From Anolis carolinensis (taxonomy: Eukaryota), in the NCBI RefSeq assembly GCF_035594765.1, contig NW_026943824.1:8140317-8204316 (forward strand): 64,000 bases of DNA. The letters are read 5' to 3'. This document shows, in pieces, positions 6,483 through 62,526 of the stretch; position 1 is the stretch's first letter, and each line of letters begins with the position of its first letter. Position numbers and translations under genes: made by a program. The notes beneath the pieces are model-generated. The model saw only the letters and a list, made by a program, of their open reading frames with translations. It was not told the origin of the DNA and did no database searches.

Positions 6483-6680
6483 TATTATTATTGTTTCATA
6501 TAGCTTTTATATTACTTTGTTATTATTAGCATCACTGTTGTTGTTTTATGTTACTATTACTAATATTATTATTTTGTTCCCTGCAGCCGGCGCTGGGCCT
6601 CCTGCCTGGGGGGCCACTGAGAGGGGCCCACTCCCCTGCCGCTTCTCATCTGGACGGACGCAACGGCCCTGGCAACAAGG

Positions 6681-9600
6681 ATGAGTGTCCCTGACTTCAC
6701 GCCAGACCCCGGGGGCGGCTTCTCGGAGGATGCCCCGCGGCCCCCAGTCCCCGGCGAGGAGGGGGAGCTGGTTTCCGCTGAGACTGGGCGCCCACCCAGC
6801 CACGGGGGCTTCTTCCACAGTGGGGAGGCCCTCAAGGCGGAGGCCACGCCCCGGCGGCCGGACCTGGACCTGGGCTACGAGCCCGAAGGCAGCGCTTCCC
6901 CGACACCCCCTGCCCTGCGCTGGGCCGGCTCCCTGCACTCGCTACTGGACGACCGGGACGGGACCCAGCTCTTCCGCAGCTTCCTACGGGAGGAGGGCTG
7001 CGCCGACCTGCTAGACTTCTGGTTTGCCTGCAGTGGCTTCCGGAAGCTGGCGCCCGGCGAAGGCAGCGAGGAGAAGCGGCTTAAGCTGGCCAGGGCCATT
7101 TACAAGAAGTACGTTTTGCACGGTGCTGGCGTGGTAGCACGTAGGGTCAAGCCAGCCACCAAGAGCTTCATCCGGGACTGCGTCCTGCGGCAGCTGGTGG
7201 ACCCGGCCGCCTTCGATCAGGCCCAGACCGAGGTTCAGGCTGCCATCGAGGAGCACTCCTACCCACTCTTCCTCAAGTCCGACATCTACCTGGAATACGC
7301 TAGGAGTGGTGGAGGAGGAGGGGGCTGCGGAGGCGGGGAGAGCCCCAAGGGCCCCTGTGGAGAACACAGCCCCGAGGGCAACGGGAAGAGCCTCCCAGGC
7401 TACCTGCCCACCCTCAACGAGGACGAGGAGTGGAAGGGCGAGGGGACCCCCGAGGGGAAGGGGAAAGGGGGCGTGTGCCGGGTGGTGGCGGAGGGCCCCC
7501 GAGACCCCCTACTGCCTCCCCCCTCCGGGTGCCTGACCCAGACGCTACGAAGGGAGACCGCTGTCCAGCAGGCCGCCCCCGGAGCCCCTCCCTCGGCCAG
7601 CAGCACTGCCGCAGTGGCCCCCAGGCGCTACAGCGAGGGACGGGAGTTCAGGTGAGAGGCAAGGGCTTGGCAGCATGTATCAATGTATGGAGGGAGCTGG
7701 GCTTTGGGCCACAAGGAGCTTCTATGGGGAAGAGGCCAGCCCCTTTCTCCAGCTTCTGAAAGAGGCACTCTCCAGCCCTTCTGTCTGAGTGCATTTCCAC
7801 ACAGCCATATAAACCAGAATATCAAGGCAGATAATCCACAATGTCTGGTTTGAACTGGGTTATCTGACTCAACACTGCCATATATCCCAGTTCAAAGAAG
7901 ATAATGTGGGATTTTATTCAGCTGTGTGGAAGGGGCCTGAGAGAGTGCTGGGGAGCAGCCAGTCCACTGCAACGGGGCTCATGGCTGTATTGGAAGGGTA
8001 GGAAGCTCCCCTCCCCTGAAATTGGTGATGGCATCATTTCCCCCTTCTAACACCGATGCCCCCTCTCAATGTGGGGGACAGGCCAGCAAGGCCCTCTCTC
8101 CCTTCCAGACTACTGTCCCTAGGATCCCAAAATAATAATATCCTGTCACTTGTAAAATTGTCAAAAATGACTCTATGAAAAGGAAACTTTTGGAGCCCCT
8201 GCTCTTCTCCTTGGCCTGCCGTCTCCCATTCTACCAGGCCTCAGCATCTGAAGGGGGGGGATGTATGCCAGTTGGAGCCTGACACAAGACGCACCCTGTT
8301 ACGGGGGGAGCCTTAGCTGGTTTGGACAAAAGCCCCCTTCTCCCTGGCTCCTCCCCATTGACTTCTCAGGCCTCTGGTTGTTTGCGGAGGCAGGACCCCA
8401 CTGTCACCTGTTCCTTCTCAATTGTGCACCAAATGTTTGCGGTAAAAATAGAACGCAGAGCGGAGGGCAGCATGCACTTTCCTTGTGTGTGCGTTTGCAG
8501 GCACACAATCAGCGGCCCTTTGAAAGCATGCCTTGGTCCACTTTTTTTGCTTTTGTTGCTCTCAAAGTGCTTCAGGAGCAAATCCAGATCTAAATGGCCC
8601 CAAGAGATTTGTAAACTGCAGGACTTAGAAGGGATGAGGGGGCAAAGGGGGGCTGAGATGGTTGGGATTCTTTCCAGGGCTTGGATTTTGGTGCCTGTGG
8701 GGCCTCCTTGGGATTATGAGGATTGCCCCAGGACCAGACTGGACAGAGCTGGGAAGGGGAAGCTGTGGGGCTGCTTGGACCACGGACAGCAGCCGGAAGT
8801 TACTATTATTTTGATGTTTATTATTATATTTTATGTCTGTTTATACCCTGTTTGTTCTCTCCACAAAGAGACTGAAAAGCATTTCAATACAATTTAAAAT
8901 CTAAAACATTTCAACAAGGTTGGGGCCTGGTGACCCCTTTTCCTGTCTGGAGGCAATTCTGTATCTCTGGGGTGGAGGGAAATCTAAGGGTCTGTTCCGG
9001 TTGAAATTGCCCAATGGATTTCTCAATGCGGGAGAACGGCCTCCCTGCTCAATTGCCCCAAGGAGGGCTTCCTCGGGAGCCTTTGGGCAAAGAGGTCCCC
9101 TTCCCAGAAAAGTTTCCTCCAAGAGACAAGCGATGCAGAAAGCCCTCTCAAGCCCTTCTCTGGCTCTGCTACCTCCCAGGGTCAAGCACAGTTGAGACCG
9201 GAAGATTGGGGGGCGGGGGACTCCAGATAGAACAGGCATGGACAAACTTGAGCCCTCCCTCCAAGTGTTTTGGACTATAACTCCCACAATTCTTAACAGC
9301 CTCAGGCCTCTTCCTTTTCCCCCTCAGCCGCTTAAGAGGCGAGAACCATCCTTCCCAGTCTCTGTTCGCTTTCAGAGGCACAAGACAGGCCCATGGCCTT
9401 GCGTTCGCCCTGTTTGGCTGGCTGTGGTCCTGGGGCCTTTTCCCGCGGCCTTACTGCCTCACTTGGCACAGGAGGAACCCGGCCTGGGCAAGAGAAGGGA
9501 GACTGTTCCAGAGTGTGGCCATCCAGCGCCTTCTCTGGGTGTGGGATGGACTGCCACCCTCGCTTTGCCTACGTGAACCCTTTTCTGATCGAGCAGCGGA

Positions 9601-14768: not shown

Positions 14769-17700
14769 TTACAGCTCATCTCTTGGCTCCAGAGACTTCG
14801 CCTGGCCCTCCTCCTTCGGCTCCTCTTTGGGGGTCTCCTGGAAAAGGGGAGACCCAGAGTCCTCTGTAAGCAGCTTCGCTCTGACACTTGGCTGTTCCCA
14901 CAGCCATTCAGCATCACCTTCTGTCCCTCCTTGGATTGAATGGGGGGGGGGCTCTGCTTCTGCCTCTTGCACCCAGCCCCACTTTATCAGGGGAAGCCTT
15001 TCAAGCAGATTTGGGCCCTGAACCGAGGGGGTAGTGCCGGTACTTACTGGGGGCTTCTCTACAGGAGGGGTCTCTCCCCCATTTTCCAGGAACCTCAAGA
15101 GGCTGTCCAGGTCTCTGTCACCCCAGTATTCTGTCATCTAGGCGCGGAAAGGGGCGCACATCAGACCCTTGCCGTCGTATTGGGTTACCCCACCCACCAT
15201 CCCTCGCAATCCAAGTGCTTGGGCCTACCTCCTTTCCTTTTCCAGCAGGGAAGAAGTAGAGTGTTGGGAAGGCGCGGATGGGCAGCCCTGGCACCTCGTT
15301 GGCTGTGGCGTCCATCTCCGCAATGAGGACGTCCTGCCGACCGTCGAACCTCTGGCCCAGCTGCTCCCAGGCAGGCGCCATGGCCTTGGAGTGGGGGCAC
15401 CAGGGGGCGTCTGGGGTTGGCACAAGCACAGGCCCTTCAGTGACACCCTCTCCGTGGGGCCAGTCTAGGGATGAGGGACTCCAAGACCCAGCATTCTCTG
15501 CTGGCTGAGCTTGACTCTCCGACAAGGGGCAGCACCAGGGGACCTTGCTCTCCCCTCACAATAATGGACCCCTCCTTCCCCCATTAGGGGTGCCCACGGG
15601 CGCTCTGGTGTGGCGGAAGAGTGACCACTTACAGAACCTGACGAAGACATCCTTGCTCTCGTCCAGGGCCACCTGCTCAAAGGTCTGCCCCACCAAGGTC
15701 TTCACTGGCCGTTGATCCCAGTCGCTTGGGGGCTCCTCGCTCATAAAGTGGGGCTGAAGGACGGAGCCAAAGCAGAGGGTTGGGGCAGAGGCCCAGAGCG
15801 CTCCTCAAACGCCAGAGGCAGAAGCACAGAGGGACAAATGCCTCCAAAACTTAAAGTCCTCTCCTTGCCCCGGTCTCCAACCCCCCCCCCAACCCCTGTT
15901 TCAACTGCTCCCCACCTGGACTCTGCCTTCTAGCACATCCTGGCAGAAGGTGCTGATGTCACTAGCGGAGAGGTCCCGCCCTTGCTCCATGTCCAGGAGA
16001 TACTTCTGGTTGGTCTCAATGTGAATGAACCGAAGGGCAGGGACCTGATGACTCTTCAGGCCGAAGAAGTGGAGCAGGCTGGCCCCGTCCCCACCAACGT
16101 TGGCCAACACAAAGAGCACCTGCAAATTGGGGGGGGGGGGGCAGCCTTGAGGATTGAGTCCTCAATAGCCACCCCCATCCCTACAGTAACGGCAATGCAA
16201 TAGCCTCAGAAGGGTAGCAGGGGGGCTCACCTGGTTCCGGAAGGTGGGAGCCGCTCCCCGGAAGCCTTCCAGAAGTGCCGAATGGGGCCCCTCCGTCTTG
16301 TTGAGGAAGAGTACCAGGTGGTTTGGGACTTTGGCCCCAAATATCCTGGAGGAGTTCTGCGGAGGACAGTTCAGGGGACAGGGTGAGCCTGTGTGCCATG
16401 GGGGGGAGGGGTACCAAGTCCCGCCCTGCCCCAGCTCACCCCCCCCCAACTCAGAGAAGCATAGCTAGCAACTGTTTGCCCACTTCCAAGACCTGGTTCG
16501 TGAACTCCACCACCGGCTCCAGGCTCTGCACCGCAAGGAAGTGGGCCAACTCTGCCTCATCCAAGCCCAGCTCCTCATCAATGAGGAAGTCCACTCTGGG
16601 GGCATCGCTGCCCTCCGTGTCCTGGGGAAGGTGCGAGGAGAGAAGGGCCTTTAGGGTCAGGAGGGAGGCCAAGGATCCCGTCCTACACAACGCCATACAC
16701 GGGGGACACCCTCCTTGTGGGGCTCCAGCCTCACCGTCCACCGGAAGAGGGCTACTGTCTCCCCCAGGACGCCGTACTTGTCAAAGAGGGCCGGGCGGTC
16801 AGTGAGGGCCACGGTCACAGTGTCGTCATCCATATCGCAGGCCACCTTACAGAAGAGGCGAGCTTCCTGGCCCTCTGGGTCCTGAAAGAAGGGCAACTGA
16901 AGAGTGAGCACATGCTCCTTGTTCTCCAGAGCCCCGGTCGTTGGCTCCCGAAGGCGCAAGACTCACGTGAAAGAATCCAACAGCAGCCACCGGATGGGTG
17001 GCCAGGAAGGCTGTGGCCTCCTCCTCCCCGGTGAGCAGCGGGGCGCTGGGTTTGGCCTTCCGCCTCATCCAGGCCACAATCGCCTCGGCCTCCCTCTCCC
17101 CTGGACAAGAAGGCACGGGTCAGGGGGCTGCACGGGGGGCGGGGGCTGCAGTGGGTGCCCTTGGGTTGGAGGGGGCTCACCTTTGTAGTCTATGGGGTGG
17201 CTGCGGTCTCCCTCCCGGAAGAGCTTGAAGGCAGGGAACCCAGCAACGCCAAACTCCTGCCGCAGCTCTGGCTCCTGCGTCCCATCCACCGACGCCAGCC
17301 TCAGGGAGCTGCTGGACCTCTCCTCTCTCAGCAAGGCGGCCGCCTTGGCATATTCGGGGGCCAGTGCCTGGCAGAGGTCGCTCCAGGGGGCATCTGGCGG
17401 AGAGAAGGGGCCGCCCCAAAGGAGGCACTGGAAGAGGCATGGTGGCGGGGGAGGGGGCATTCTCCCCATGAGCCTCATGCCAGGCTTGGGCCCAGCAGCC
17501 ACGCAGGCACTGTTTGCATGGCTCCTGACCGCGGCAAGGCTTTGGAGGATGTTTGCTTTTCCAAGGTGCCCTGATACGCCTTTGTGGCACTCAGCGGCTG
17601 CCCGACAGGAACGGCATTAAGGAGCGGTCTGTGGGAGAAGGACCGGACCTCAAAGCCAGCAGCAGGCAAAGTCATTCCCACCCTTTTTTTATCATGTCAG

Positions 17701-18280
17701 AAGCAACTTGAGAACATGCTGCAAGTCACTTCTGGTGTGAAAGAATTGGCTGTCTCCAGAGACGTTGCCTGGGGAATACCCTGATGTGTTACCATCCTGC
17801 TGGGGGGCTTCTCTGATGTCTAGCTGACAGATGGAAACTCACCCTGTCTCGCAGATTTGAATCGGCAACCTTCAGGTCAGCAACCCAACCTTCAGGTCAG
17901 CAGTCCAGCCGGCACAATTACTGCACCCTGGCTTTTTTCCCACCCCAGTGGCCCCTCAGAAAGAGACGGGGAGGGGAGAATGGTGCAGACCAACCCCTCC
18001 CTCGCTCCCACTCCCGATGCCCCTTTGCCAACTCACGGAAAAGCACCAGGAGCAGCCGGTTCTCCTGCAAGGCCTGTGTAAAGCCCTGCTGGTTGAGGAC
18101 CAAGACCTCTTCCTCCTCCTCCACCTTGAGGTCAGGTTCTCCAGAGAGGGTTCTCCCTTCGCTGGGCCCTTGCTGCCCCTCTGTGGGGGTCAGCGTCTCC
18201 TGAGTGACTGCTACTCGCACCCAAGACAGGGTCAGCCATGGGATCAGCATCAGAGTCATCCATCCAGGGAAGTGGCCCAT
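14769..18280 (-). CDS. PDIA2: Protein disulfide-isomerase A2 (PDIp) orthologue, ~552 aa, 11 exons, with degenerate active sites
   Basis: Exons (minus strand) 18280-18037, 17393-17181, 17100-16967, 16881-16735, 16621-16493, 16356-16231, 16119-15916, 15753-15633, 15410-15229, 15137-15048, 14837-14769. Has a signal peptide, a-b-b'-a' thioredoxin folds ([33 protein letters not shown]) and C-terminal RDEL. Convergent with AXIN1 as in human. Confidence 0.93.
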
Positions 18281-21154: not shown

Positions 21155-21863
21155 ATGGGGGCAGGGGGTGAGGCACTGCGAAGAGGGGAGGGAAGGGGGC
21201 CCAATTCAGCCAGCCTCATCCAAGTAAGCATTTCCTCTGAGTCTATTTTTCCTTGCAGGGAGCAAATGTGTGGGGCCTGGAGGAGCCCTACCTCGAAGCC
21301 AGGTAAGTTGGAGCAGGCCTGGGCCAACTTGGGCTCTCCCTCCTGGTGTTTTGGACTTCAACTCCCGCCATTCCTAACCGCCTCAGGCCCTTTCCTTTCC
21401 CCCCTCAGCCGCTTAAGCGGCTGAGGGGGGAAAGGAAGGGGCCTGAGGCGGTTAGGAATGGCGGGAGTTGAAGTCCAAAACACCAGGAGGGAGGGCCTAA
21501 GTCCTATCCCTGTCCTTCAGGAGGAAGAGGAAGGCGAGGAGGCGGCCTTAATGGAGGCGTCGGGGGCCTCGTTGCTGCACGTCTTGGCCCAGAAGGGCGA
21601 CTGCGAAAGGGCCCTGCAACTCCTCTCAAGAGGCCCCAAGGAGGCCCTGCTCCGACGCCAGGTATCCATCATGGCGACTGTTGTTGTTGACTTGGTTGAT
21701 AACCCGCCCTGACCCCTCGCTGACCCCTCTTTCCTCCTCCTCAGGACGCCTCAGGCCGGACGCCGCTCTTTTGGGCCACCGAGAACCGGCGGAAGAGGAT
21801 GGCGGCGCTGCTGCTGGAGCACGGGGCAGACCCCGGCGCCAGGGATCACGTGAGCAAAGGGAG

Positions 21864-21904
<41 letters not shown>

Positions 21905-24900
21905 TTAGTTGTCATGACGACCACCCCCTCCGAGACCCCTCGCTTCCCATTCGCTCTTTGCCAAACGAGGCCCCGCCCCTAACGCCAGGCCCCGCCCCCT
22001 CTGCCTTGGTCTCCTCAGGCTGGGAACCTGTGCCTGCACCGGGCCGCCTTCGTAGGCAGCGCCCGCCTCGCGCGTCTCCTGCTGGACGCCGGCTCCGACC
22101 TGAACGCGCCCAACGCGCGCGGAGAGCGCCCTCTGGCCTTGGCTCGGAGGCAGCGGCGCCCCAAGTGCCTCGCGTGAGTGAGTCCAGAGGCAAGAGCGGG
22201 GAGGCGGGGCTTCCTGAGCAAGGGGCGGTTCCAGATGGCCACGCCCCCTCCTCTTCCCCTCCCTCCCTCCCTCCTCCAGGCTGCTTCTGTCGCTAGGCGC
22301 CACCCCTTCGCCGAAAGACCCGCCTCCTAGGATCCTCTGCAGGTGAGGGAAGTTGGGCGTGGCCACGGACAGGGGAGGGGCTTGTTCGGCAAACAACAGC
22401 AAACCCCGCCCCCTCTTAAAGGGACATCTCTCGCGGCCTGGAGGCCCTGCCTATCCCCTGCCTGAACGGCGTCGACGATGAGCGCGCTCCCGGGGACTTC
22501 CTCTACGTCACGCAGAGCCTTGTCTCGGACTCGGCGGAGGCGCCCCCTGGCGGGTGGGCGCGCAGGCAGGTCAGATGTCAAGGGGAGGGGGAGGCGGCCT
22601 GAGGCTGCTAGGAATGGTGGGAGTTGAAGTCCAAAACACCTCAAAGGCCCAAGTTTGCCTCGACTTTGGCCACGCCCCCTCCGAAAGAAGAGGCGGGCAC
22701 TCTTCCTCTTCCTTCTCCTCAGCGCTGCTCCTGCGGACCCGTCTGCCCCGCCCCCGACTGCTCCTGCTTGCTCCGCTCCGGCCGCAGCGCTGCCTGTTAC
22801 TCCCCGGTGAGAAGCCACGCTCCGTTCCTCTTGGGGGCGTCTCCTCGTGAGCCTGCCCGTCCCTGACCCCGCCCCTTTTGTTCCCCGCAGGAGGGCCGCC
22901 TTCTCCTATTGGACGCCGACGTCGCGAACGCCCTCTGCGAGTGCCACCTACTCTGCTCCTGCGGCAGCGCATGCGCGAACCGCGTGGCCCAGAGCGGGCT
23001 CCGGTGAGAGGGCACGCCCCCTGGCAGGGGAGGCCCCGCCCCCTGGCACCCCCTCAGCCAATGAGGCCCTCTCTCTCCCATCCTTTTGGCAGGACTCAGC
23101 TGCAGCTCTTCCGCTCCGCCGAGAGGGGCTGGGCAGTGCGCGCCATGCAGGACCTGGCTCCCGGCGCCTTCCTCTGCCAGTGAGTCCCTTCCTTGGCTGG
23201 TTTGTTTGTTTATCGTGTCATAAGCGAACCCAGGGTATTTAAAAGCACAAAACAAAGTTATACTAAATGCCCTTTGACAAGTAGCTGGACACGTCAGTGC
23301 CTCTGGTGTTGCTATGAGAAGGTTCTCCAGGGTGCATGTGGCAGGGCTCAGGCTGCATTGTATAATATTATAATGGAATACAATATAATACTATTAATAA
23401 TACAATATAATAATATTAATTATATATTATATATTAAATGCAATATTACTAATAATATTACCATATAATGATATAGTACAATATAGAAATTTAATGCTTA
23501 TATTGTGCTATGCTAATAATATATTGTATGTTCATTTGATTTGTAAGCCGCTCTGAGTCGCCTTCAGGGTGAGAAGAATGGGATATAAATGTAGTAAATA
23601 ATAAATAAATAAATGTAATAGGTGGTCTGTGGTTCACTCTTCTCCACTCTTGGCATGCCTTCCAAGTCGCCCAGTCTTCTGTGTGCCCAGGAGGGAGTCT
23701 CTCATCTGGTATCGGCCACTGATTGAGGTTCCAGCTTTTAGCCTGCCACTTTTGGATTCTTGCTTGCTGAGGTGTTTCCTGCCAGTATCTCTGTAGATAT
23801 TAGGAAAACTATTTCTGGATTTAAGGCGGTGGTGGCTGATATCCAAACATTGGGTATGCGCATTCAGCAGCAGAGCAGCCAAGCGCAAGAGCAGATGCCT
23901 TCACGGTTTCTGGTTGTGATCCCCAGGTTGTGCCAGTCAGCTTTCATATGATATTAGTTCTAGCATCCCCTTTTTGCTTGATAGTCAAGCAGTGCTTCTC
24001 GTAAGTCAGAGCACGGTCTAGAGTGACTCCCAAGTATTTTGAGGTGCTGCAATGCTCCAGCAGGATTCTTTCCTAGATCATCCTCAGAGCTCAAGATGCT
24101 TGTCTGTTCTTAAGCAGACATCTGCAATTTAGATGGATTAAGGATCAACTGGTTTTCCCTGTAATGGGCCAGGAAGACATCTTTCCACCATGTCTCCTTT
24201 ACCATCAGATGGGAGCACTCTCCCCCCCCCTGCCCCCAAGGTCTAACTGCCATTCTGGACCGGAATGAAGAAGGCGGGGCCAGGAAGACATCTTTCCACC
24301 ATGTCTCCTGTATAAATTTAATGATATAATAATATTATAATATATTGTATATACATGTAATATTAAAAATAATATGATGTAATACAATGTAATTTGATAT
24401 ATAATATGATGTAATACAATGTAATAATTATTATATTCACTATTATAATTGTATATTTATATTACATGCAATATTACTAATAATATTGCAATATAGTCGT
24501 ATAGTCATAAGAACCCCGGTGGCGAAGTGCGTTAAAGCACTGAGCTGGAGACTGAAAGGTCCCAGGTTCAAACCCCGGGAGCGGCGTGAGCAGCCGCTTT
24601 TAGCTCCAGCTACTGGCCAACCTAGCAGTTCAAAAACATGCCAATGTGAGTAGATCAATAGGTACCGCTCCGGCAGGAAGGTAACGGAGCTCCATGCAGT
24701 CATGCCGGCCACATGACCTTGCCGGACAACGCCGGTTCTTCGGCTTAGAAATAGAAATGAGCACCAACCTCCAGAGTCAGACATGACTGGACTTAACGTC
24801 AGGGGAAACCTTTACCTTTTTATATTAATATTATAATATATTGTATATACATGTAATATTAATAATATTATGATGTAATACAATATAATAATTATAATTC

Positions 24901-26421
24901 ACTATTATAATTGTATATTTATATTACATGCAATATTACTAATAATACTGTAATATAATAGTGTAATATAATATATTATATGTATGTATATACTTGTAAA
25001 CCGCTCTGAGTCCCCTTCGGGGTGAGAAGGACGGGATACAAATGTCGCAAATAAATCTATATATATAAAAGAGTGATGGCATCAGGGCAGCGGACAAAAC
25101 AACAAAACTACAGGCCCCCCAACCTCGAAATTTGACAACACAACCCATCATTCACGGCTCTAGGTTGATACAACAAAAAGAAAAGTAAAATAAAGTCCTA
25201 GTTACAGGGAGAGGAATAATAGTTTTTATCCAATTGCTGCCAGTTTGAAGGCTAAGCTCCGCCCATTTGGTCTCCTAGCAACCTCCTCAGCCCAGGGGAC
25301 AGGCACAGTTAGGCCTCACTTAGGCCTCTTCCACAGATTATCAGATTTTAACTGAATTATATGGCAGTGTAGACTCAAGGCCCTTCCACACAGTTATATA
25401 ACCCATTTAGAATCTTATATTATCTGCTTTGAACTGGATTATCTTGACTCCACACTGCCATATAATCCACTTCAGTGTGCATACTAAACATAAAGACAAC
25501 CATACAACAGACATTCAATACCATCACTACCTCAACAATTTCTCACCAACACCACCAGACAACGCCACAGCAACGCATGGCCGGTCACAGCTAGTAAATA
25601 ATAATAAGAGACCAAAAGCTTTGGAGAGTTTCTGTTCAACCATGTCAATGTTCCCTGCTTGAGCAGTGATGGCACAATCGTCAGCATAGATGATTTGAAG
25701 TTGAAGTCCAAAACACCTGGAGGGCCTAAGTTTGCCCATGTCTGGTCTAACCTCCTCCCTGCCTCATTCGCAGGTACTTTGGGGAGCTGGTCTCCGAGGA
25801 GGAGGCGCGGAGGAAGGAGGAAGAAGAGGCTGCCCCTGGCTACTGCTTCATGCTGGGCGCCCAGGTGACGTCACCCTCCCACTCTAGGCAGCGGGTCCCT
25901 CCTCTCCTCTCCTCTCCTCTGACCTCACCTCACCTCTCTCTCTCTGTCTCCCCCTGGAGGTCGGGCGCGGGTGCTGCCTAGACGGCCGTCGCTATGGCAA
26001 CGTGGCCCGCTTCTTGAACCACTCCTGCCGTCCCAACTTGGTGGCACTTCCAGTCTTCACGGGGCTGGAGGTCCCCGGAGTCGCCTTCTTCGTCTCCTCG
26101 AGGGGCATCCGGGCCGGGGAGGAGCTGGGGTGAGGAGGAGGCGTGGCTTCCACGGAGGGGCGTGGCCACGGAATCGAGGGCGGGGCCACCAGCGTTTGCC
26201 TTCTTTCCAGGTTCGACTACGGAGACGACTTCTGGGCGGCGCGACTGAGCCGAGGGATGTCCTGCCACTGTGGGGAGGCTCTCTGCCGCTTCCCTGCTTC
26301 TCGGGAAGCCCCGCCCCCTCAGGAAGCCCCGCCCCGCGGCTTCGCCTTCAAGACCCTGCGCTGCCCGGCTGAGAGGCAGGGAAAGGGGCGGGGACCTGTT
26401 GTAGCCCCTGCGGGCCAATAA
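21155..26421 (+). CDS. Unnamed EHMT (G9a/GLP)-like lysine methyltransferase: ~3-4 ankyrin repeats + pre-SET + SET + post-SET, ~474 aa, 13 coding exons
   Basis: Exons 21155-21167, 21259-21302, 21521-21661, 21745-21849, 22019-22173, 22280-22342, 22422-22569, 22723-22806, 22891-23003, 23093-23179, 25774-25864, 25960-26129, 26211-26421 total 1425 nt, open and phase-consistent. Motifs: TPLFWATE, NLCLHRAAFVG, DISRGLEALPIPCLNGVD, 9 pre-SET Cys, RGWAVRAMQDL, YFGELVS, YGNVARFLNHSCRPNL, GEELGFDYGDDFW, CHCGEALC. The two 5'-most exons are less certain than the rest. Confidence 0.88.
21315..21498. mobile_element. Palindromic hAT-type MITE (related copies or fragments at ~9233-9337, 22596-22660, 25695-25745, 26490-26667, 35404-35560, 62658-62795)
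   Basis: Near-perfect hairpin centred on CCCCTCAGCCGCTTAAGCGGCTGAGGGG, with arms GTTTTGGACTTCAACTCCC / GGGAGTTGAAGTCCAAAAC. Confidence 0.75.
21868..21900. repeat. (AG)n microsatellite
   Basis: Read directly from the sequence. Confidence 0.95.
23200..24170 (-). mobile_element. Vingi-like LINE RT/3' fragment, interrupted by an AT-rich L2-tail SINE (~23365-23612)
   Basis: Minus-strand translation includes KYLGVTLDRALTYEKHCLTIKQK...KLTGTTWGSQPETVKASALALGCSAAE, typical of ingi/Vingi-clade RT. Confidence 0.6.
24511..24819 (+). mobile_element. Sauria-type SINE
   Basis: tRNA-like head GGTGGCGAAGTGCGTTAAAGCACTGAGCTG...AGGTTCAAACCCC, conserved body, ACCTTT tail. Confidence 0.85.
25056..25594 (+). 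mobile_element. Non-autonomous Helitron
   Basis: Starts TC and ends CTAG, inserted between A and T, with a GC-rich subterminal segment GCATGGCCGGTCACAG. Related copies at 43039-43527 and 44916-45371. Confidence 0.75.
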
Positions 26422-26422
26422 A
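26417..26422 (+). terminator. AATAAA overlapping the TAA stop of the EHMT-like gene
   Basis: CAA TAA A: the stop codon lies inside the hexamer. Confidence 0.55.
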
Positions 26423-26873
26423 CGCCTGTTGAAGGAATTCGCCGGAGAGTGCCCGCCTCTTTTTTCGGAGTGGGCGTGGCCAAAGTTGAGGCAAACTTGG
26501 GCCTGTCAGGTGTTTTGGACTTCAACTCCCACCATTCCTAGCAGCCTCAGGCCCTTTCCTTTTCCCCCTCAGCCGCTTAAGCGGCTGAGGGGGAAAAGGA
26601 AAGGGCCTGAGGCTGCTAGGAATGGTGGGAGTTGAAGTCCAAAACGCCTCAAAGGCCCAAGTTCGCCTCTAGGAATTGGGCCTTCTCTGGTTGAGCCAGA
26701 ACAGGCCTCCTTGGCAGCCCCTCACTTGGGCCAGGCCTCTCCCCTCAGGTTGATGATGATGATGATGATATGAGAGGCTGCGTTGGCGAGGGAGGGCCGG
26801 CAGGGGGCAGCTGAGAGGCCTCCACTTCCTCGGCTGGAGAACCCTGCAGAGCCTCCTCCTCCTCTTTTGCACC

Positions 26874-29800
26874 ATGACCATCAGCGCCCTCCGCCCCGGA
26901 GCAGGGGGCAACTCCCGCCTGCAGCTGCCCTGCCTGGCCAAGGCAAGATGGGGACAAGGGGTGGGGGACATGCGGAGGGAATTGCTCCCCCAACCTTGGA
27001 TCCCTGCCTTCCTCCCTCCATCTCTCCCTCTTGGCTTCCTTTGCAGATGGAGCGGGTGGTGGTTGGCATGCAGGACCCAGACATGGGCGTCAAGGTGCGC
27101 AGTCAGCGCCTCCTCATCACCGTCATCCCCCACGCCCTTACTGGTAAGCAGGGTGGAGGGAAAGGGGAGAGCAGCAGCAGCCCCTCCCCTTTCCTATAAC
27201 CCCCTGACTTGGCCCCTTCTCCCCCCAATTAGGGAGTGACATTGTCCAGTGGCTGGTCCAGAAGTACGCCATTTCCGAGGAAGGTGAGCCCTGGTGACTC
27301 CTTCCCCCTTCCCTGGGCCCATAACCCTTGTTGGGAAACGTGTTAGGCTCAAAATAATCCTCACTTGGGGCAATTCCACCATAAATATAGCAGATTACCA
27401 GAAGTGGTGGCACAATGCGTTAAAGCACTGAGCTGCCGAACTTGCGGACCAAAAAGTGCCAGGTTCAAATCCCGGAAGCGGCTTAAGCGCCCGCTGTTAG
27501 CCCCAGCTCCTGCCAACCTAGCAGTTCGAAAACATGCAAATGTGAGTACCGCTCCAGTGGGAAGGCAACGGCGCTTCATGCAGTCATGCCGGCCACATGA
27601 CCTTGGAGGTGTCTACGGACAACGCCGGCTCTTTGGCTTAGAAATGGAGATGAGCACCAATCCCCAGAGTCGGTCACGACTGGACTTAATGTCAGGGGAA
27701 ACCTTTACCTTTACCCTACCAGAAGTAAACTTCGTAACCAGCAAAAGGATTCTGGGCTGGCCTGCCTCGGACTCTCTGTACTTCCAACAGGACTTTGGTA
27801 ACTGACTTCCATAGTAAATGACTGACGTGTTGCCTATCTTTTACTGCACTTTATTCCTTAGCCAGCCATAGTTTCCCTTGTTTATGCCTCCCCTAGCACT
27901 TTAATTGGGACAATAGTTTTGGTATTGTTCCCCCCCCCCCACCCACCCATTGTATCTGACACTACTGACACTCTCTTTGGCCCAGTTCCTTTTAGGAGCC
28001 AATCCAGGATTTTATCAAAGTACAGTATGTCTATTTTATGTGACCTTATTAGTTTTATGATTTGTTTTATTGTTGTGTTTTGTATTTATTTATTTACAGT
28101 ATTTATATTCTGCCCTTTTCACCCAGGGCGGATCACATTATATACATATAGGGCAAACATTCAATGCCCATACACACATAGAACCGAGACAGAGACAGGC
28201 ACAGAGGCAATTTAACCTTCTCCTGAGGGGATATTCGATTCTGGCCACGGGGGTGAGCAGCTGCTTCATCATCCATTGTGACGGCACTTCCTCATTCCAA
28301 CGTCGTAAATTAGTTAAATTTGCCTCCCCACTTTATAAGTGGTACCTTATTTCCTACTTGATAGATGCAACTATCTTTCGGGTTGTTAGGTCAGCAACGA
28401 GCAGGGGCTATTTTTTATTTTTTAATTGACGGGTGCTCACCCTGCCACGGGCTGGCCTCGAATTCATGACCTCATGGTCAGAGTGATTTATTGCAGCAGG
28501 CTGCTTACCAGCCTGCGCCACAGCCCGGACCCATGCCTTTTTGGCCTGGGCTTGGCCCCATGTAAGCCGGCCCGAGTCCCTTCGGGGAGACGGGGCGGGG
28601 TATAAAAATAAAATTATTATTATTATTGGGGCCCTTCCTGCCTCCCTGCAGAGGGTCCCTTCAGGACACTGCAGGGCCGGGATCTTGTGTGCCCCCTTTA
28701 CCCTTCTCTTCTCCCCCCAAATCCAAAGAGGCCCTCCACCTGGGCAACCTGATTGTGCGGCATGGCTACATCTACCCACTGAAGGACCCCCGCAGTCTGG
28801 CCCTGCGCCCAGATGAGACCCCCTACCGCTTCCAGGTGAGTCGGAGGGGCTCCTCCAGCGCCACCCCCAGAGGCCGTTGGGCTTCGACGAGGGGGACACA
28901 ACATGCACAGACACCCCTTTCTACCTCTGTTGCCCACAGACGCCCTATTTCTGGATGAGCACCAAGTGGCCGGCCACAGAGCTGGATTATGGTGAGCCCC
29001 CACTCCCAGCCCCTGTGTTTGGGGGGCAGCAGGGGAGAGTGAGGGTTAAACGCTTTGAGCCATAACTAGTCCTTCTCTTTCCAGCCATCTACCTGGCCAA
29101 GAGGAACATCCGGAAGCAGGGGGAGCTCATTGGGCATGAGAAGGTGGGCAGCCCATGAGAGTTGGGGGGCTGCAGTGCCAAGAAGGGGTGGAGGCGTCTA
29201 TGGGTCTGACATGCCCCCTCCCCCTACCCTTGGGCACCTTGCAGGATGACTACAATCAGCTGCACAAGAGGATCAACCACAGCTGGGACTTCGTGGTCAT
29301 GCAGGCCAGGGAGCAGCTCCGGTGAGTAGTACTCCGTATCTACCAACTGGAGTGCCCAGCATCCCCACCCCATTGGCAGTGGAAGAGGAGGGGAGCTGCC
29401 ATGGCCACACAAGGGTCTTTGGGAAGCTGGGGGTGGAGATGGCATCCCCCCAATCCCCTCTTCTCTCCTCTCCTGCTTCTCAACAGGGCGGCCAAGCAGA
29501 GGCGAAAGGGTGACCGTATTGTCATCGAGTGTCAGGAGCAGGCCTATTGGCTGGTCAACAGGCCCCCCGTGAGTGAATTATTGGGGCGGGGGGTGAGGGA
29601 GGGGGGCAGGGATGCCCTTCACCAGCAGCACCAGTTGCCCCTCTCTGCTGATTTTGTGGGGGGGGGGGGGGATTTGCAGCAGCTGAGACAAGGTTGCTTG
29701 ACCACCATCCCTCTTGCCCTTGAGTCCCATGGTACTGAGAGACCAGCGATCCCGTAATGTGGAGGTGCTCTTGTGGATATGGATGGGGGGTGTCTCTGGG

Positions 29801-32800
29801 GGGTCTGTCTTCCTCCCCCCAAAAGGATGGGGCCGAGGCAGACCCCAAAGGTTCTCTTTCTTTCTTTGCAGCCTGGGGTCTCAAACGTCTTGGAGCAGGG
29901 CCCTGAGCGCCGGAACTGCCATAGCACCCGAGTGCAGCTGGTAAGGGGGGTGGGGAATGGGTTCCTCTCTTGGGGTCCATTTATTGGGTCTGGGGGTGGG
30001 GCCATCCTTGCTTTCTTTTGGCCTACTGTGCTCTCTGGGCAATGGGGGTGGTCAAATGTGTGGGATGGTATCAGTCTGTGTCTGCACTGTTGACCTTACT
30101 AACTGACTGGTGTCTGCTGCGTCTTGTCTGTGGCTAAAGTGCGGGCGGGGGGAGCAGTGGGGGAGTAGACCCCCTCCCACGGCCTCCTTTTCTTGATCTG
30201 TGTGAAGGCGCTCCTTAATTGTGTGTTGGGGAGGGGGTCTTGTGTGCTTCTGCTGGGGGAATGGGGAGGAGCTGCTTGTGTCTCTGCCTGTTCCCCTGTC
30301 TGCCCCCCCCTCCTCAACTGACTTTTTCGGGGCCTGACCTTTCTTCTCTTGTGTCCTGCTTTGTCCGTCTGTCCACCTGTCCACGTAAGTCACTAACACT
30401 GCTGCTGATGTGTTGCTCAGGGGGGTTGGAGGGTCCATGGGCCTTGCTGGGGGGGGGGGGGGCAGCAGAGGGGCCTCCTCCATTAAGCAGACTGGGGCCT
30501 GCTCTTCCTATTCCCTCTCCCCTCTGCCTGGCTATCCTATCTGCTGATGGCCAGTTGGGGCATTGCCTATTTGCCCCTCTGTGTGACAGAAGGCGGGGAG
30601 CAATTGCTGGGGAGGAGGGTGGTGGGACACACAGAATGGACCTGATTGCTCTCTGTCTCTCCTTCTTGCAGGAGAAGAACACTGACTTCTATAAGCGGGA
30701 GGTGAGTGAGTGAATAAGGCTTCTGGGGTGTTGTGTGGTTTCAGGGCTGTATGGCCATGTTCTAGCAGCATTTTTCCTGGCAAGGAGACAAAACCCCAGT
30801 GATTCCAGCCATGAAGGCCTTCAACAGTATACTGTGAAGAAGCCTCCTGGGGTTGTACGCCTCCCCTGACCCCCTTCTCCCTCCCGCAGATCCGCTACTT
30901 CCGTGCGGCCATGGTCCGCACTCGCGTCAAGTCCTCCGTCTGCCTTGAAGGGTGAGTGAGTGGGTACAGACCACGGCCATTGTCCCCTGGCGCTTGGTCT
31001 CTGCCAGCTGCATGTCCCACCTGTGAAAGGTTTCCACAGATGCGGATGGGGAAGCACTCCGTGTGGATAGTCATGCAGGCCGGGGTCAGATTGCAAGTCC
31101 TTCCTGCCCCCAATCTTAGTCTGAAGGCAGTGTAGTTGGATGATATTTACCTCAGCACTGGGTCCCAACCATGTTTTGGGGATCTATCATTCCCCTCAGT
31201 GCTTTGGATCCTCCATCTTGCCCTCCTCAGGGGCTTCCTGTCACTCATAATTTTATTTATTTATTTACAGCATTTATATTCCGCCCTTCTCACCCCGAAG
31301 GGGATTCAGGGCAGATCACATTGCACACATAAAGTCAAACTTCAATGCCTTAACATAGAACAGAAACAGAGGCAAGATGCAGGCACGGGCTGGCCTCGAA
31401 CTCATGACCTCTTGGTCAGTGATTTGTTGCAGCTGGCTGCTAACCAGCCTGCGCCACAGCCTGGCTTTATAACCCAACGCTTCCTTGACTCCCCTTTGTA
31501 GTTACATCCGGTTCAATGAGCAGTATGTGCCCCATGACCCCGTTATGTCCGGCTGCCTCCCCAGCAACCCCTGGATCACAGGGGATACCATGTACTGGAC
31601 CATGAATGCCCCCACGTAAGCACAGCCTCCCCCAGACCCAGGGGTAAAGGGGGCAGTGGGTGGGTGAGGGGGCTCCACACCCAAAACGGTCTGCCCATTT
31701 ATTCCAGGGTGACTGCTCCCACCAAGCTGCGGGTGGAGCGCTGGAGTTTTGGCTTCAGTGAGCTCATAGGGGACCCCCTTGGCCGTGTCCAGCTCTTGGA
31801 GTTCCTCAAGAAGGAGTTCAGTGGTGAGACAAGGAAGGGATGTATGTGCATTGAGAAGAGGGCATTGGGTGCAGCAGTTCAAAGGAATAACTGCCTGGTG
31901 CTGTGGCCTTGCAGCCCCGATTGGTGTCCAGACCCTTATAGCTGACATGGGATCTAAAATAAGGGAGTATTGACCATGAAAATTCCCCCTGCTCCTTTTT
32001 CCTCTGTGCAGCTGAGAACCTGAGCTTCTGGGAGGCCTGTGAGGAGCTGCGCTACGGAGAGCAGGGGCGCATCGCAGAGATCGTGGACTCCATCTACCAG
32101 TGAGAGAGCGTGCCCCCTTCTTCCCTTTGGGGCTCAGAACAGTAGGGCTGGAGGTGCCTCCTTTGTCCCCCCTCCCCACACTTTCAAGGCTTGAGGTGGG
32201 GTGTTGTGTTGTTTCCAGGTTGTATGGATGTGTTCTAGCAGCCTTTTCTTCTGGAACGTCAGGGGAAAATGCTGCCACAACATGGCCATAAAGCCCGGAA
32301 ACCACACAACACCCAAGTGATTCCGGCCGTGAAAGCCTTTGACAATGCCTTGTTGAGGTGCCCCTTCTGTTTCCCTCCATCCCTCCCTCTCTTTCAAGGC
32401 AGTTCCTGGCCCCTGGAGCCACCCGCTGGGTCAACATTGACAGCAAGACCATGGAGCGGACCCTGGAGGGCATCAAGACCCCGCATCGCTACGTGATGGA
32501 TGACGCCCAGATGCACATCTACATGCTGATGAAGAAGGTGATTGACAGGAGGCAGGGCGGGAGCTTTGCAACACCCTTCTTTGGGGTTCCTCCAGGACAC
32601 GGAGGTTTGGCCCTACACCTCTCAACTCTCTTCTTAACCCCCATCCCCGAAATCAGGATTCGTACCCCCGTTTCATCAAGTCTGACCTCTACAAGAACCT
32701 GCTGGCGGAGGCCATCATCCCTCCGGAGACCAAGAGGCGGTGAGTGGGGGGGGGGGGTCAGTGGGGAGGAGGGGGTGACTGAGGGGAGGGGCTCAGGCAG

Positions 32801-32960
32801 GAGGAGGGCAATTGCTCTGACCCCTGACCCCCCCCTTTCCAGCGTGTTTCCCTTCATGCGCAAGCCCCGCCATGCCAGCCCCAGCCCCGCCCTGCAGCAG
32901 CTGCCTCCGGGGGACTCCGAGGGTCGAGCGGAGCCGGAGCAGCCGGAAGGAGGCACCTAG
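26874..32960 (+). CDS. RGS11: Regulator of G-protein signalling 11 (DEP-DHEX-GGL-RGS, ~470 aa, 17 exons)
   Basis: Exons 26874-26942, 27047-27143, 27233-27283, 28729-28835, 28940-28991, 29085-29143, 29245-29321, 29487-29568, 29872-29940, 30672-30701, 30890-30951, 31502-31615, 31708-31823, 32012-32099, 32399-32537, 32657-32739, 32843-32960. Peptides [64 protein letters not shown]. Synteny agrees. Confidence 0.96.
27400..27718 (+). mobile_element. Sauria-type SINE
   Basis: Same family as 24511-24819. Confidence 0.85.
28080..28530 (-). mobile_element. SINE with an L2-like tail (family also at 19441-19905, 31255-31462, 52005-52220)
   Basis: Shared segments TATTTATATTCCGCCCTT...CCTCGAACTCATGACCTC...CTGCGCCACAGCC. 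Confidence 0.55.
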
Positions 32961-34906: not shown

Positions 34907-37900
34907 TCAGCGGAGGCTGCGGTACCGCATCCGGAGGAAGTGATCCCGAACTTCCTGTTTTGTCATCTGGGCCAGGGGGCCGAGCCTCAGCACCCTGCCT
35001 GTGGTCACGTCTTCCTTCAGCCGCCGCTTCGAGAGCACAACCGTCCCGTCGGACGTGCCGCTCACATCGGGGCCCGTCATCAGCACGTAGCAGGCGTGGC
35101 GGCTCTTCTCAAAGAGGGCCCCTGGGGGCAAAGGGGTGAAAGGGGTCAGGCTGGTGGTGGGGGAAAGGAGGGGCCAGGGTACAAGGAGGGGGCCTTACCC
35201 TCAAAGACAACTACGGGCTCAGTGTTGTTAGTCATCTCCATGAGGATATTGGGGAGGGATGGGTGGAAGAGGTACAGGTGCGGTGTCGGCTGTGAGGCAT
35301 TGCCTGGAGAGGCCTGGAAACCAGAGACAGAGCTCAGCCAGTGACCTCCAGGAGCTGCCCACCCGGAATGGACGCTTCTGAAAGCCACGGGGAAGACTTA
35401 TACCAGGCATGGACAAATGGGGCTCTCCAGATGTTTTGGACTTCAACCGACAATTCCGAACAACTTAAGCTGCTGAGGGGGGAAATGAAGAGGCATGAGG
35501 ATGTTAAGAATTGTGAGTTGAAGTTCGAAACCCCTGAGGGCCCAAGTTTCTTCATGCCTGTCTTATACCATTGCAAAATGACCACCTAGGAAGCAACTGC
35601 TCTGCCCCAGTCCCTGTCCAACAGCCCTTGCTATACTCACCGTCTCTGTGGTGTCTTCTGGGTACTGGCCCCAGAAGAGGAAGACGGAAAGATGGTCGGC
35701 TGTTGGGAGGGTGGCTGCCTGCGGCAGGGCTGTCGCTGGCTGCAGCAGCTCCACCTCCCAGTCGATGTCTCCTGTCTCGCCCTCCACGATCATCACCTGT
35801 GGACAGAGTGTCACGGGTCTCCCAGCAGCCTCTGCCCCCTCAACTGTGCCCCTCAGCTCTGGCCCAGCGAGGCTTCTCAGCATCCAACTTTGTGCTTGAA
35901 TGTAACCGTAGCCTTGCACCAGGGAAAACACCACCGTTCTTTTCACGACACATTTGCAAGGCTACCCGCAGCCGGCTCAAGGGTCACCCACGCCTCCCTG
36001 GCCCCCTGAAGGCACCCTGCAAACCTTTTTCTTTGTGGGGGAGACTTGGTTTTCGATGATCATGTCAAGGTCGTCAAGATCGTAGGACCCAACAACAGGA
36101 TCCCTGCAAAAGGGGCACAAGGTGGTTTCAAAATGCACCCTGGCCCTCTTTGCCAAAAGGGCCCCAGTCCACATTGTGGGTGGAAGGAGCTTTGGGGTGC
36201 CAACAACCCCAGGCAAGGAGTATGGGCCCCCTCCTCCTTATTAATTTATTACTCATTTATTCACTATATTTTTACCTTGCTCTTCTCACCCCCAAAGGGA
36301 CTCAGAGCGGTCTACACACATTGTAGGTACACAGTGTAGAAATATAATACAATGCAAATCCAAGCACATTTAACATAAAATACAAGACAAAAATCACACA
36401 AAGCACAATAACGTCCAGAAATGAGATGCAGATAAATACTAAGCATTAAAAACATTTAAAACCAATTACAATTATTGTGGTGACTCAATTAAATAGTATA
36501 TTTCGCTAAGGTCAGTCATCAATGTTAAACATGAGCCAGCGAGAAAATTAAGAGAGGTTTCCATAGATTAAAAATTAAATAAATAAATTTTAAAATGTGC
36601 GTCTCCTCAGAGGGCCATCTGGCTGAGCCCAGGCCAGGCCTGAGGACCAAGGCTAAGACTGGGCCCGCTGCCTCCTTCAGCCACTAGTTGGACGACAGCG
36701 TTACCTCAGGAGGTGGGGCATGTCTATGACCCAGACAGAGCCCAGATGCTTCCCGTCCACCATCTCCAGTGTGGAGGAACCCCTCGCTAAAAAGTTGCTG
36801 CCGGGCTTCTCCTCCATCTTGGTCAGAGAGCGGATCCCTCCCAAGCTAGAGGAAGAGGAGGAAACGCTAGGAAAAGGAAGCCTTGGCCGAGGGGGGGGGG
36901 GGGGCGGGGGGGGCAGCCCCTTCTCTTTTACCTGCGGAGGGCGACCCTGTGGGTGATGTCATCAATGGCCACTTCCCAGCGCAAGTCCTCTTTTAGGTTG
37001 ATGCTCGGGTAGGCGGGCAGTGGGACAGACATGCGCCAGAGCTGCTGCATGGAGTAGCTGAAGAGGCCTTTCTCTGAGCAAGAGAAGGGGAAGGCTGGGT
37101 GAGGAGGGGAGGGCTTTTGGGGAGGGGGAACCTCTTTTCCTTCCTGCAGACCCACCTGTATGGAAGAGCACGTAGGTGGCTCCACTGGATGTGACCTGCA
37201 AGAGATGGCCCAGGCAGTATGGTAGCGGCAAGTGGGCTGTGGCCCCGATCTGGGTGCCATCTGAACCAGCATAGAAGGAGCTCCTCAGCTGCGGAGGAAA
37301 AGGGAGACAGAGGGGGAGAGAAAGCACAGGTCTGTGAGGCTCTATGCCTGCGAAACGTGGACGGTCTACAGACGTCACACTCAACTCCTGGAGCATTTCC
37401 ATCAGCTTTGTCTCAGAAAAATCCTGCAAATATCTTGGGAAGACAGGTGGACAAATGTCAGCATGCTTGAGGAAGCAAAGAACACCAGCATTGAAGTGAT
37501 GCTCCTACGCCATCAACTCCGCTGGACTGGCAACGTTGTCCGAATGCCCAATCACCGTCTTCCAAAGCAGCTACTCTACTCCGAACTCAAGAACGGGAAA
37601 TGTAATTTTGGTGGGCAGGAAAAGAGATTTAAAGATGGGCTTAAAGCCAACCTTAAAAACTGTGGCATAGACACTGAGAACTGGGAAGCCCTGGCCCTTG
37701 AGCGCTCTAATTGGAGGTCAGCTGTGACCAGCAGTGCTGAGTTCGAAGAGGCACGAATTGGAGGGCTTAAGGGAGAAACGTGCCAAGAGGAAGGCCCATC
37801 AAGCCAACCCTGACCGGGATCGCTTTCCACCTGGAAACCGATGTCCTCACTGCGGGAGAACATGCAGATCAAGAATAGGTCTCTTCAGCCATCTACGGAC

Positions 37901-61700: not shown

Positions 61701-62526
61701 ATGGCGACCCCAGAGCTGAAAACGGAGTTGAAGAGGTGAGGTCTGTGCCCTCGGGACGGGCCATGGGGGGAGTAACCACAGTGACCACTTGCCCCTTTCT
61801 CTAGGTTTGGGGTCCGGGCCCTTCCAAAGCGCCAGATGGTCCTTAAGCTGAAGGAGATCTTCCAGTTCACGCACCCAGAGAGGAGGAAGGGGAGCGCCAC
61901 CTCCCCATTGGCCCCACGGCACTGTCCGGCTGGGGCCATACAGGAGAGCCAGAAGTCAGCCCTGCCTGGCTTGCAAAAGGTGCTACCCATGGCTCCTGCC
62001 CTTGGAAGTGATGACGTGGGCCGTCCCTCCTCTCCCCCGGCTTCCCAGGCGTCCACCGGATCCTCTGTGGCCACCTCCCACAGGTACGGGGTTGCACTTC
62101 TTTAGGGGGGGAAGGTGCTGGCTCCTTTGGGGAATCTGCTTTGTCTTAGAAGAAGCACACTCCCTTCTTCCTTCCACCAGTTCTTCTTCAGCCGAGTTCG
62201 AGACCAGTTGGCTGGAAGAGGAGGAGGCGGAAGCACCGGCAGCGTTGATGCCGGCCTCTCAAGTTCTCGCCCGCGAGGAGTCCAATCTGGAGGCCTTCCG
62301 GCGCCACATCCGCTCCTCGCCGGCCCTCTGCCGCCGGATCCTGCTCTACCAACCCATCGAGCTGGCCGCGTTGCATGCGGAGCTGAAACAGAGCGGGGTC
62401 AGGATCGCAGCAGGGAAGCTGCTGGACCTCCTGGACGCCCACGGCATCACCTTCACTACAGCCGAGGCGAGGAGGGAGTGCCGTGGGAGGAGACGGCTGG
62501 CGGGGAAGCAGCGGAAGCGTAGGTGA
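55007..62526 (+). CDS. SLX4: Structure-specific endonuclease scaffold SLX4, compact form (~1030 aa, 10 exons)
   Basis: Exons 55007-55271, 57834-58120, 58250-58430, 58560-58630, 59285-59425, 59614-59783, 60109-61349, 61624-61735, 61805-62083, 62181-62526, phase-consistent. Contains the BTB ([26 protein letters not shown]), SIM-like IVVLDSDEE and VVVVDDSEE, the SAP ([43 protein letters not shown]) and the SLX1-binding domain ([12 protein letters not shown]...[12 protein letters not shown]). Confidence 0.93.
55672..57418 (-). mobile_element. R4/Dong-clade LINE (RT + CCHC + restriction-like endonuclease), frameshifted, running into the gap
   Basis: [48 protein letters not shown]...PDITVV...IIDVAIPGD...EKLSRYQDL; TAA-rich 3' tail. 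Confidence 0.9.
57419..57566. other. Assembly gap (148 N)
   Basis: Run of N between the R4 and CR1 fragments in SLX4 intron 1. Confidence 1.
57567..57800 (-). mobile_element. CR1 LINE RT fragment
   Basis: [19 protein letters not shown]...[33 protein letters not shown]. Confidence 0.85.
58775..59095 (+). mobile_element. R4/Dong LINE 3' fragment in a (TAA)n tract
   Basis: [25 protein letters not shown]...[18 protein letters not shown], nearly identical to the copy at 55672, with TAA runs on both sides. Confidence 0.85.

Follow-up and report, generated by a model that had tools for sequence, protein, structure and literature searches.

One cysteine is missing from each active site of PDIA2 in Anolis carolinensis, and the change at the a' site is common to most squamates

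In thioredoxin-type active sites, nucleophilic attack falls to the first cysteine and resolution to the second. Protein disulfide isomerases (PDIs) whose site reads CxxS are reported to bind their clients for longer and to isomerise disulfides while neither oxidising nor reducing them (PMC12384036). The same source describes mixed disulfides between AGR2 or ERp44 and their clients, MUC2 being a client of AGR2. AGR2 consists of one thioredoxin domain (175 aa) with the site CPHS (PMC3500226), and ERp44 of domains a-b-b', with a single CxxS site (CRFS) in a and an RDEL tail. Eug1p, a full-length PDI-like protein with CxxS twice and no CxxC, is a paralogue that stands beside canonical Pdi1p; it is described as unable to carry oxidising equivalents, as requiring a CxxC partner and as suited to shuffling rather than oxidation (PMC2195995). 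PDILT also lacks any CxxC, its two sites reading SKQS and SKKC. Mouse Pdia2, which belongs to the family considered here, is reported to be expressed in pancreas and stomach (PMC3753263).

We examined a PDIA2 locus in Anolis carolinensis, within a window that comprises the whole stretch of 64,000 nucleotides analysed (table 1). An initial interpretation, made from the letters alone (the sequence-only reading), had claimed that both active sites of an otherwise intact PDIA2 have lost one cysteine relative to the human CGHC and CTHC, and had considered sequencing error unlikely. The human motifs are as it gave them, and the codons bear out the anole ones: on the minus strand, positions 17385-17371 read TGG AGC GAC CTC TGC (WSDLC) and positions 15402-15388 read TGG TGC CCC CAC TCC (WCPHS). 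The H and Y that opened its two peptides are encoded by codons that introns 1 and 8 interrupt. All 11 exons are bounded by GT-AG and the frame stays open over 552 aa to the C-terminal RDEL; the likely signal peptide was recognised by visual inspection and by a helix predicted at residues 7-23. Exon 2 matches the A. carolinensis UniRef entry H9GMA6 at 100%, and the full product differs from that entry at three residues, leaving the motifs unaffected. Five cysteines occur in the product, at 89, 208, 212, 390 and 444. With SDLC and CPHS as its sites, it falls outside the dithiol PDI oxidoreductases, which carry at least one CxxC. In exon 1, Leu80 occupies a position that is Glu in most PDIA2s. 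Cys208 and Cys212 lie four residues apart on a predicted b-domain helix; among the compared records, Cys208 is confined to both anoles and Cys212 to A. carolinensis. The C-terminus of Anolis sagrei PDIA2 (row P0004) reads KVEL, not RDEL.

Table 1. Positions, within the window, of the anole PDIA2 gene, its active sites and its neighbours
Feature	Position	Strand	Remarks
PDIA2 coding span	14769..18280	-	11 exons, 552 aa, domain order a-b-b'-x-a'
Exon 1	18037..18280	-	initiation codon; likely signal peptide; acidic stretch; first part of domain a
Intron 1	17394..18036	-	contains high-copy repeat
Exon 2	17181..17393	-	remainder of domain a, including active-site position
a site WSDLC	17371..17385	-	Ser86 (AGC) for nucleophilic Cys; Cys89 retained
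Exon 3	16967..17100	-	
Exon 4	16735..16881	-	domain b; Cys208 and Cys212
Exon 5	16493..16621	-	
Exon 6	16231..16356	-	domain b'; His302 at 16320-16318, aligned to ligand-pocket His278 of human
Exon 7	15916..16119	-	domain b'; Cys390 aligned to human Cys364
Exon 8	15633..15753	-	x linker, beginning of a'
Exon 9	15229..15410	-	domain a': active site and Pro of RAFPT
a' site WCPHS	15388..15402	-	nucleophilic Cys444 retained; Ser447 (TCC) for resolving Cys
Exon 10	15048..15137	-	
Exon 11	14769..14837	-	RDEL (14783-14772) and stop
AXIN1 exon	6621..7655	+	tankyrase-binding and RGS domains; downstream neighbour of PDIA2
RGS-domain exon	32343..32960	+	upstream neighbour of PDIA2
FAM234 beta-propeller exon	36962..37504	-	upstream neighbour of PDIA2

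The identity of the gene was addressed by phylogeny, gene order and predicted structure. A quick tree of 31 proteins recovered a PDIA2 clade (SH-aLRT 99) whose 13 rows range from coelacanth to Anolis and include human; it excludes both P4HB and PDILT, the PDILT-like sequences forming a separate clade (support 100). The branching of a 38-row quick tree agrees with the amniote species tree. At human 16p13.3, AXIN1 lies on one side of PDIA2 and RGS11 and FAM234A on the other; the AXIN1, RGS-domain and FAM234 exons of the anole follow the same order, and by that order the RGS-domain exon is presumably RGS11. ARHGDIG lies between PDIA2 and the RGS gene in human; no Rho-GDI match was found in that interval of the window. 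The predicted anole structure (mean pLDDT 89.4) comprises four thioredoxin folds, which with the ER-retrieval tail correspond to the a-b-b'-a' architecture of PDIA2; Ser86 and Cys444 stand directly ahead of predicted helices 87-105 and 445-460, and human PDI gives the best structural matches (identity about 40-42%). The tree and the neighbouring genes thus rule out a PDILT paralogue, which, coupled with a canonical PDIA2 elsewhere, was one of two outcomes that the sequence-only reading had named as fatal to its claim. The row taken as PDILT in the tree (P0217) has 584 residues and the SKQS/SKKC motifs, as given in PMC3500226. The window holds one PDI locus, and a search for a second copy within it found none. 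Between PDIA2 and the RGS gene (21552-27240, plus strand), an ankyrin repeat in 21724-22293 and a piece of a SET domain in 25888-26130 perhaps belong to one unlisted gene. Elsewhere, a Slx4 endonuclease domain match lies at 61852-62526 (plus strand) and an assembly gap of 148 N at 57419-57566.

The sequence-only reading had called for reads and RNA-seq to be checked at both sites. Assembled contigs, as distinct from raw reads, from four of four public runs belonging to four studies show only the letters of WSDLC and WCPHS, with no alternative letter at either motif; in run X13 the a' motif is reached only at a contig end. Together with the match to H9GMA6 and the conservation across squamates described below, they rule out a sequencing error. 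None of the runs with the locus is on record as RNA, and spliced contigs, of unstated tissue, occur in two of them. In these two, nine of the ten introns (2 to 10) are joined at the predicted places which, with the open frame and the GT-AG junctions, rules out a pseudogene. The joint of exons 1 and 2 across intron 1 is not listed in the contigs of either spliced run, which does not prove it absent. Both spliced contigs continue from exon 2 into intron 1, so that the dominant transcripts in those samples retain at least part of this intron; both runs also extend upstream of the start codon, and read-through from exon 1 into intron 1 hits a stop. We infer the full-length form from the conservation of the exon 1 protein across species. 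Several squamate isoforms in the databases, among them Rhineura X2, Hemicordylus X3 and one from Phrynocephalus, are likewise missing the first part of domain a. Run X18 carries G>A at 17358 (Pro94 to Ser), directly after the a site, and GATC insertions that look like library junctions.

Two homologue searches, of which we kept the best 120 of 1512 and the best 120 of 2659 hits, gave 147 records, each the representative of a 90% cluster: 24 from squamates (23 species) and 123 from birds, mammals, turtles, one crocodilian and coelacanth, with some of these non-squamate species present twice. Among the matches listed, both sites are CxxC in all 123 non-squamate records, and 22 of the 23 squamate species carry CxxS at a' (CPHS in 21, CPYS in Liasis), the only canonical squamate being Hemicordylus capensis (rows P0041/P0036; CGHC and CTHC). 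Such recurrence excludes chance in the sequencing. The a site, visible in 21 squamate species, has lost its first cysteine in 18, being replaced by Ser in 17 and by Ala in Lerista (a rough gene model); the three species that retain CxxC are Varanus (CRPC), Elgaria (CGRC, with G for the preceding W) and Hemicordylus. Variants at this site comprise SDLC, SELC, SSHC, SGQC, SKHC, SEPC, CRPC and CGRC. Iguanians are the most derived, with SDLC or SELC and the upstream Glu changed to Leu or Ala, and W, G, H or the upstream Glu have also been lost in various squamate lineages. Although C444, P445 and S447 each stay unchanged throughout the 22 derived species, 35 of the 109 a' columns do the same, and the invariance of any one a' residue is therefore unremarkable. 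Similarly, a retained cysteine need not be catalytic, since 19 of the 20 derived species with a visible a site still have Cys89, which is expected to be redox-idle. The telling contrast in these alignments concerns the attacking cysteine, which 18 of 21 species lack at a but none of 23 lacks at a'. All 23 squamate rows contain His302 and Cys390, and all squamate rows compared have the Pro of the a' RAFPT loop; the frame is open in the 23 species (skinks, lacertids, anguimorphs, iguanians and snakes), and most of them have an ER-retrieval tail. No gecko or tuatara PDIA2 occurs among the best 120 hits of either search, which is no evidence of loss because only these were listed. The change is not peculiar to this genome: by these alignments it is old and common to most squamates, oldest and most fixed at a'; the two sites differ in history, a' being fixed and a variable.

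Cordylids group with skinks in the species tree, and given this grouping the a' history needs at least two events: either CxxS arose once and Hemicordylus went back to CTHC, or it arose independently in skinks and in the other groups. A quick tree places Hemicordylus outside all other squamates (support 93). With the motif columns removed, the tree does not resolve the deep squamate nodes, nor is a clade of Hemicordylus and skinks rejected (p-AU 0.21); shared derived sites bearing on the placement of Hemicordylus split two against two. The squamate and amniote alignment proposed earlier as a means of dating the change thus gave its squamate-wide distribution but no date, since these nodes are unresolved and no gecko or tuatara record is among the listed hits. 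The a' change likely came first and the decay of the a site afterwards. We also compared rates on a fixed topology with 13 squamates (without Hemicordylus), 14 other amniotes and coelacanth. The ratio of squamate to other-amniote tree length came to 1.91 in a' (range over 15 resamples 1.58-2.31), whereas the other domains gave 1.01 (a), 1.14 (b) and 0.90 (b'); within squamates a' is still the slowest domain (1.87 vs 2.36-2.91). The faster a' signals a relaxed, partly lost constraint, as expected if redox cycling ended.

How the anole protein compares with the described systems follows from these data. It is the orthologue of human PDIA2 by tree and neighbours, with the same a-b-b'-a' order and equivalents of His278 and Cys364, but no dithiol site is left. 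The CPHS tetrapeptide is identical to that of AGR2, and in the predicted structure this CxxS sits where a helix of a thioredoxin fold begins, as in the monothiol type; the anole protein differs from AGR2, however, in having four domains with a b' pocket. The exact match should not be over-read, because two changes from the ancestral motif suffice, its His being ancestral and Pro occurring there in 5 of 123 non-squamate records. ERp44 likewise has one CxxS site and RDEL, but its thiol lies in a rather than a', its tail is regulated by pH and zinc, and it is only 18-19% identical to anole PDIA2 in structural matches. Four domains also argue against descent from either the single-domain AGR or the a-b-b' ERp44 family. 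Like Eug1p, the anole protein is full-length and devoid of CxxC; unlike the Eug1p case, it is the orthologue itself that changed, with a nucleophile only in a'. The sequence-only reading had drawn a parallel with PDILT, which has the same domain order and whose a' SKKC resembles the anole a site. That parallel fails because PDILT has no nucleophilic cysteine at either site, while the anole keeps Cys444; AGR2, ERp44 and Eug1p are closer.

We propose, with a probability of roughly 60%, that anole PDIA2 acts as a monothiol holdase and isomerase through Cys444, and not as an oxidase. As neither site can form an internal disulfide, oxidase function, and with it reductase cycling, is predicted to be lost. 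The b' pocket would bind an unfolded secretory client and Cys444 would attack one of its disulfides; with Ser447 in the resolving position, the mixed disulfide would be long-lived, its release depending on a client thiol, on glutathione or on another PDI. RDEL would meanwhile hold the complex in the ER, P4HB and Ero1 would supply new disulfides, and domain a would likely be a non-catalytic scaffold. The intact predicted fold, Cys444 at the start of helix 445-460 and the absence of a speed-up in b' (ratio 0.90) are in keeping with this proposal. A dithiol shared between Cys89 and Cys444 was set aside by inference, Cys89 being at a normally buried position. In this light, the shift from oxidase and isomerase to chaperone or thiol-retention factor suggested by the sequence-only reading stands, as a prediction, as regards the oxidase; a loss of isomerase activity is not required, a CxxS PDI being reported to isomerise (PMC12384036, PMC2195995). 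Several points weigh against the proposal: the relaxed constraint signalled by the faster a', the many other invariant a' columns, the retention of a Cys89 expected to be redox-idle and the unlisted joint of exons 1 and 2. In addition, Varanus and Elgaria, with CxxC kept in a, may still oxidise. More tentatively, squamate PDIA2 could be a four-domain, AGR2-like thiol trap that went from pancreas to being stomach-specific and covalently holds gastric secretory proteins. It is equally no more than a suggestion that this trap arose early in squamate history, by convergence on CPHS with the other site decaying.

ERp27 is a marker of pancreas. Its value of 402.7 in the pancreas column of the habu (PMC9146206) suggests that this sample was true pancreas. 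Table 2 of the same source gives the habu gene model labelled PDIA2 a value of 59.1 TPM in stomach against 0.1 in pancreas, with no more than 1.1 in any of the other 18 columns, and P4HB 2381 in stomach; a single animal was sampled, and the orthology of that model to PDIA2 was unsupported by the authors' tree (PMC9146206). These values suggest expression in stomach only, unlike the mouse pattern, and the working tissue of the anole protein may possibly be the stomach. A link to venom was rejected, the habu venom glands showing only 0.1-0.2 TPM (PMC9146206). Term searches found no PDIA2 in the text and seven supplements of a python digestion paper (PMC5597892), and the term matches shown for the supplements of a gut atlas (PMC13689627) held no squamate data. 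Literature searches for squamate PDIA2, in which most subscription journals were outside coverage, returned no paper on the cysteine change. CPHS occurs in live-bearing and in egg-laying species alike, so a link to egg-laying is unsupported; a preprint lists PDIA2 among eggshell candidates under diversifying selection (10.1101/2023.10.22.563505).

Much of the same evidence could be read as that of a redox-dead chaperone in which the b' pocket alone works, on clients and perhaps oestradiol, Cys444 being a structural leftover; we hold this possible but rather unlikely. It would account for an acceleration found in a' and not in b', and for Cys89 and Cys390 being retained without a catalytic role. 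A 2010 title by Fu and Zhu is said to describe the chaperone activity of human PDIp as independent of its enzyme activity, which would also count in its favour, as does the presence of His302 in every squamate row, the human counterpart being reported to bind oestradiol (PMC3207843). The pocket alone, however, does not explain why the equivalent exposed position was lost from a in most lineages and never from a', why a' remains the slowest squamate domain, or why its RAFPT-loop Pro persists in all rows compared.

Relaxed selection, under which squamate PDIA2 would have become mostly redundant beside P4HB and would drift without taking on any new role, appears improbable. The freely variable a site (eight variants), the about twofold faster a', habu stomach PDIA2 about 40-fold below P4HB and absent from pancreas (PMC9146206), and the lack of a gecko record among the best 120 hits of each search, which could mean loss, all point that way; but a frame kept in 23 species with a retrieval tail in most, the usual relative rate of a, b and b', and S447 and P445 without further drift do not. 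We consider least credible, and very improbable, a hidden paralogy in which an early squamate duplication left the derived copy here and a canonical one elsewhere or only in Hemicordylus. The canonical sites of this species, despite the kinship of cordylids and skinks, and its position outside other squamates in the quick tree are what one would then expect. Without the motif columns, however, that position dissolves, as noted above, the window has a single PDIA2-like locus in the AXIN1/RGS/FAM234 neighbourhood, and no second Anolis PDIA2 occurs among the best 120 of 1512 or of 2659 hits.

CxxS PDIs were already known; what is new is that an orthologue has been converted in most of an order, and that natural intermediates accompany it. 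In the records examined, birds, mammals, turtles, the crocodilian and coelacanth all have both CxxC sites, yet most squamates live without them, which bears on whether PDIA2 must oxidise in digestive-enzyme cells or need only hold clients there. Database names for the squamate proteins read "protein disulfide-isomerase" with no comment on the lost cysteines. Squamates thus offer a graded natural series, with two CxxC sites in Hemicordylus, one in Varanus and Elgaria and none in anoles and snakes. The clients of a CxxS form should become covalently trapped and hence identifiable. If the thiol-trap reading is true, almost a whole vertebrate order would carry a natural trapping mutant, for which Hemicordylus would be the canonical control.
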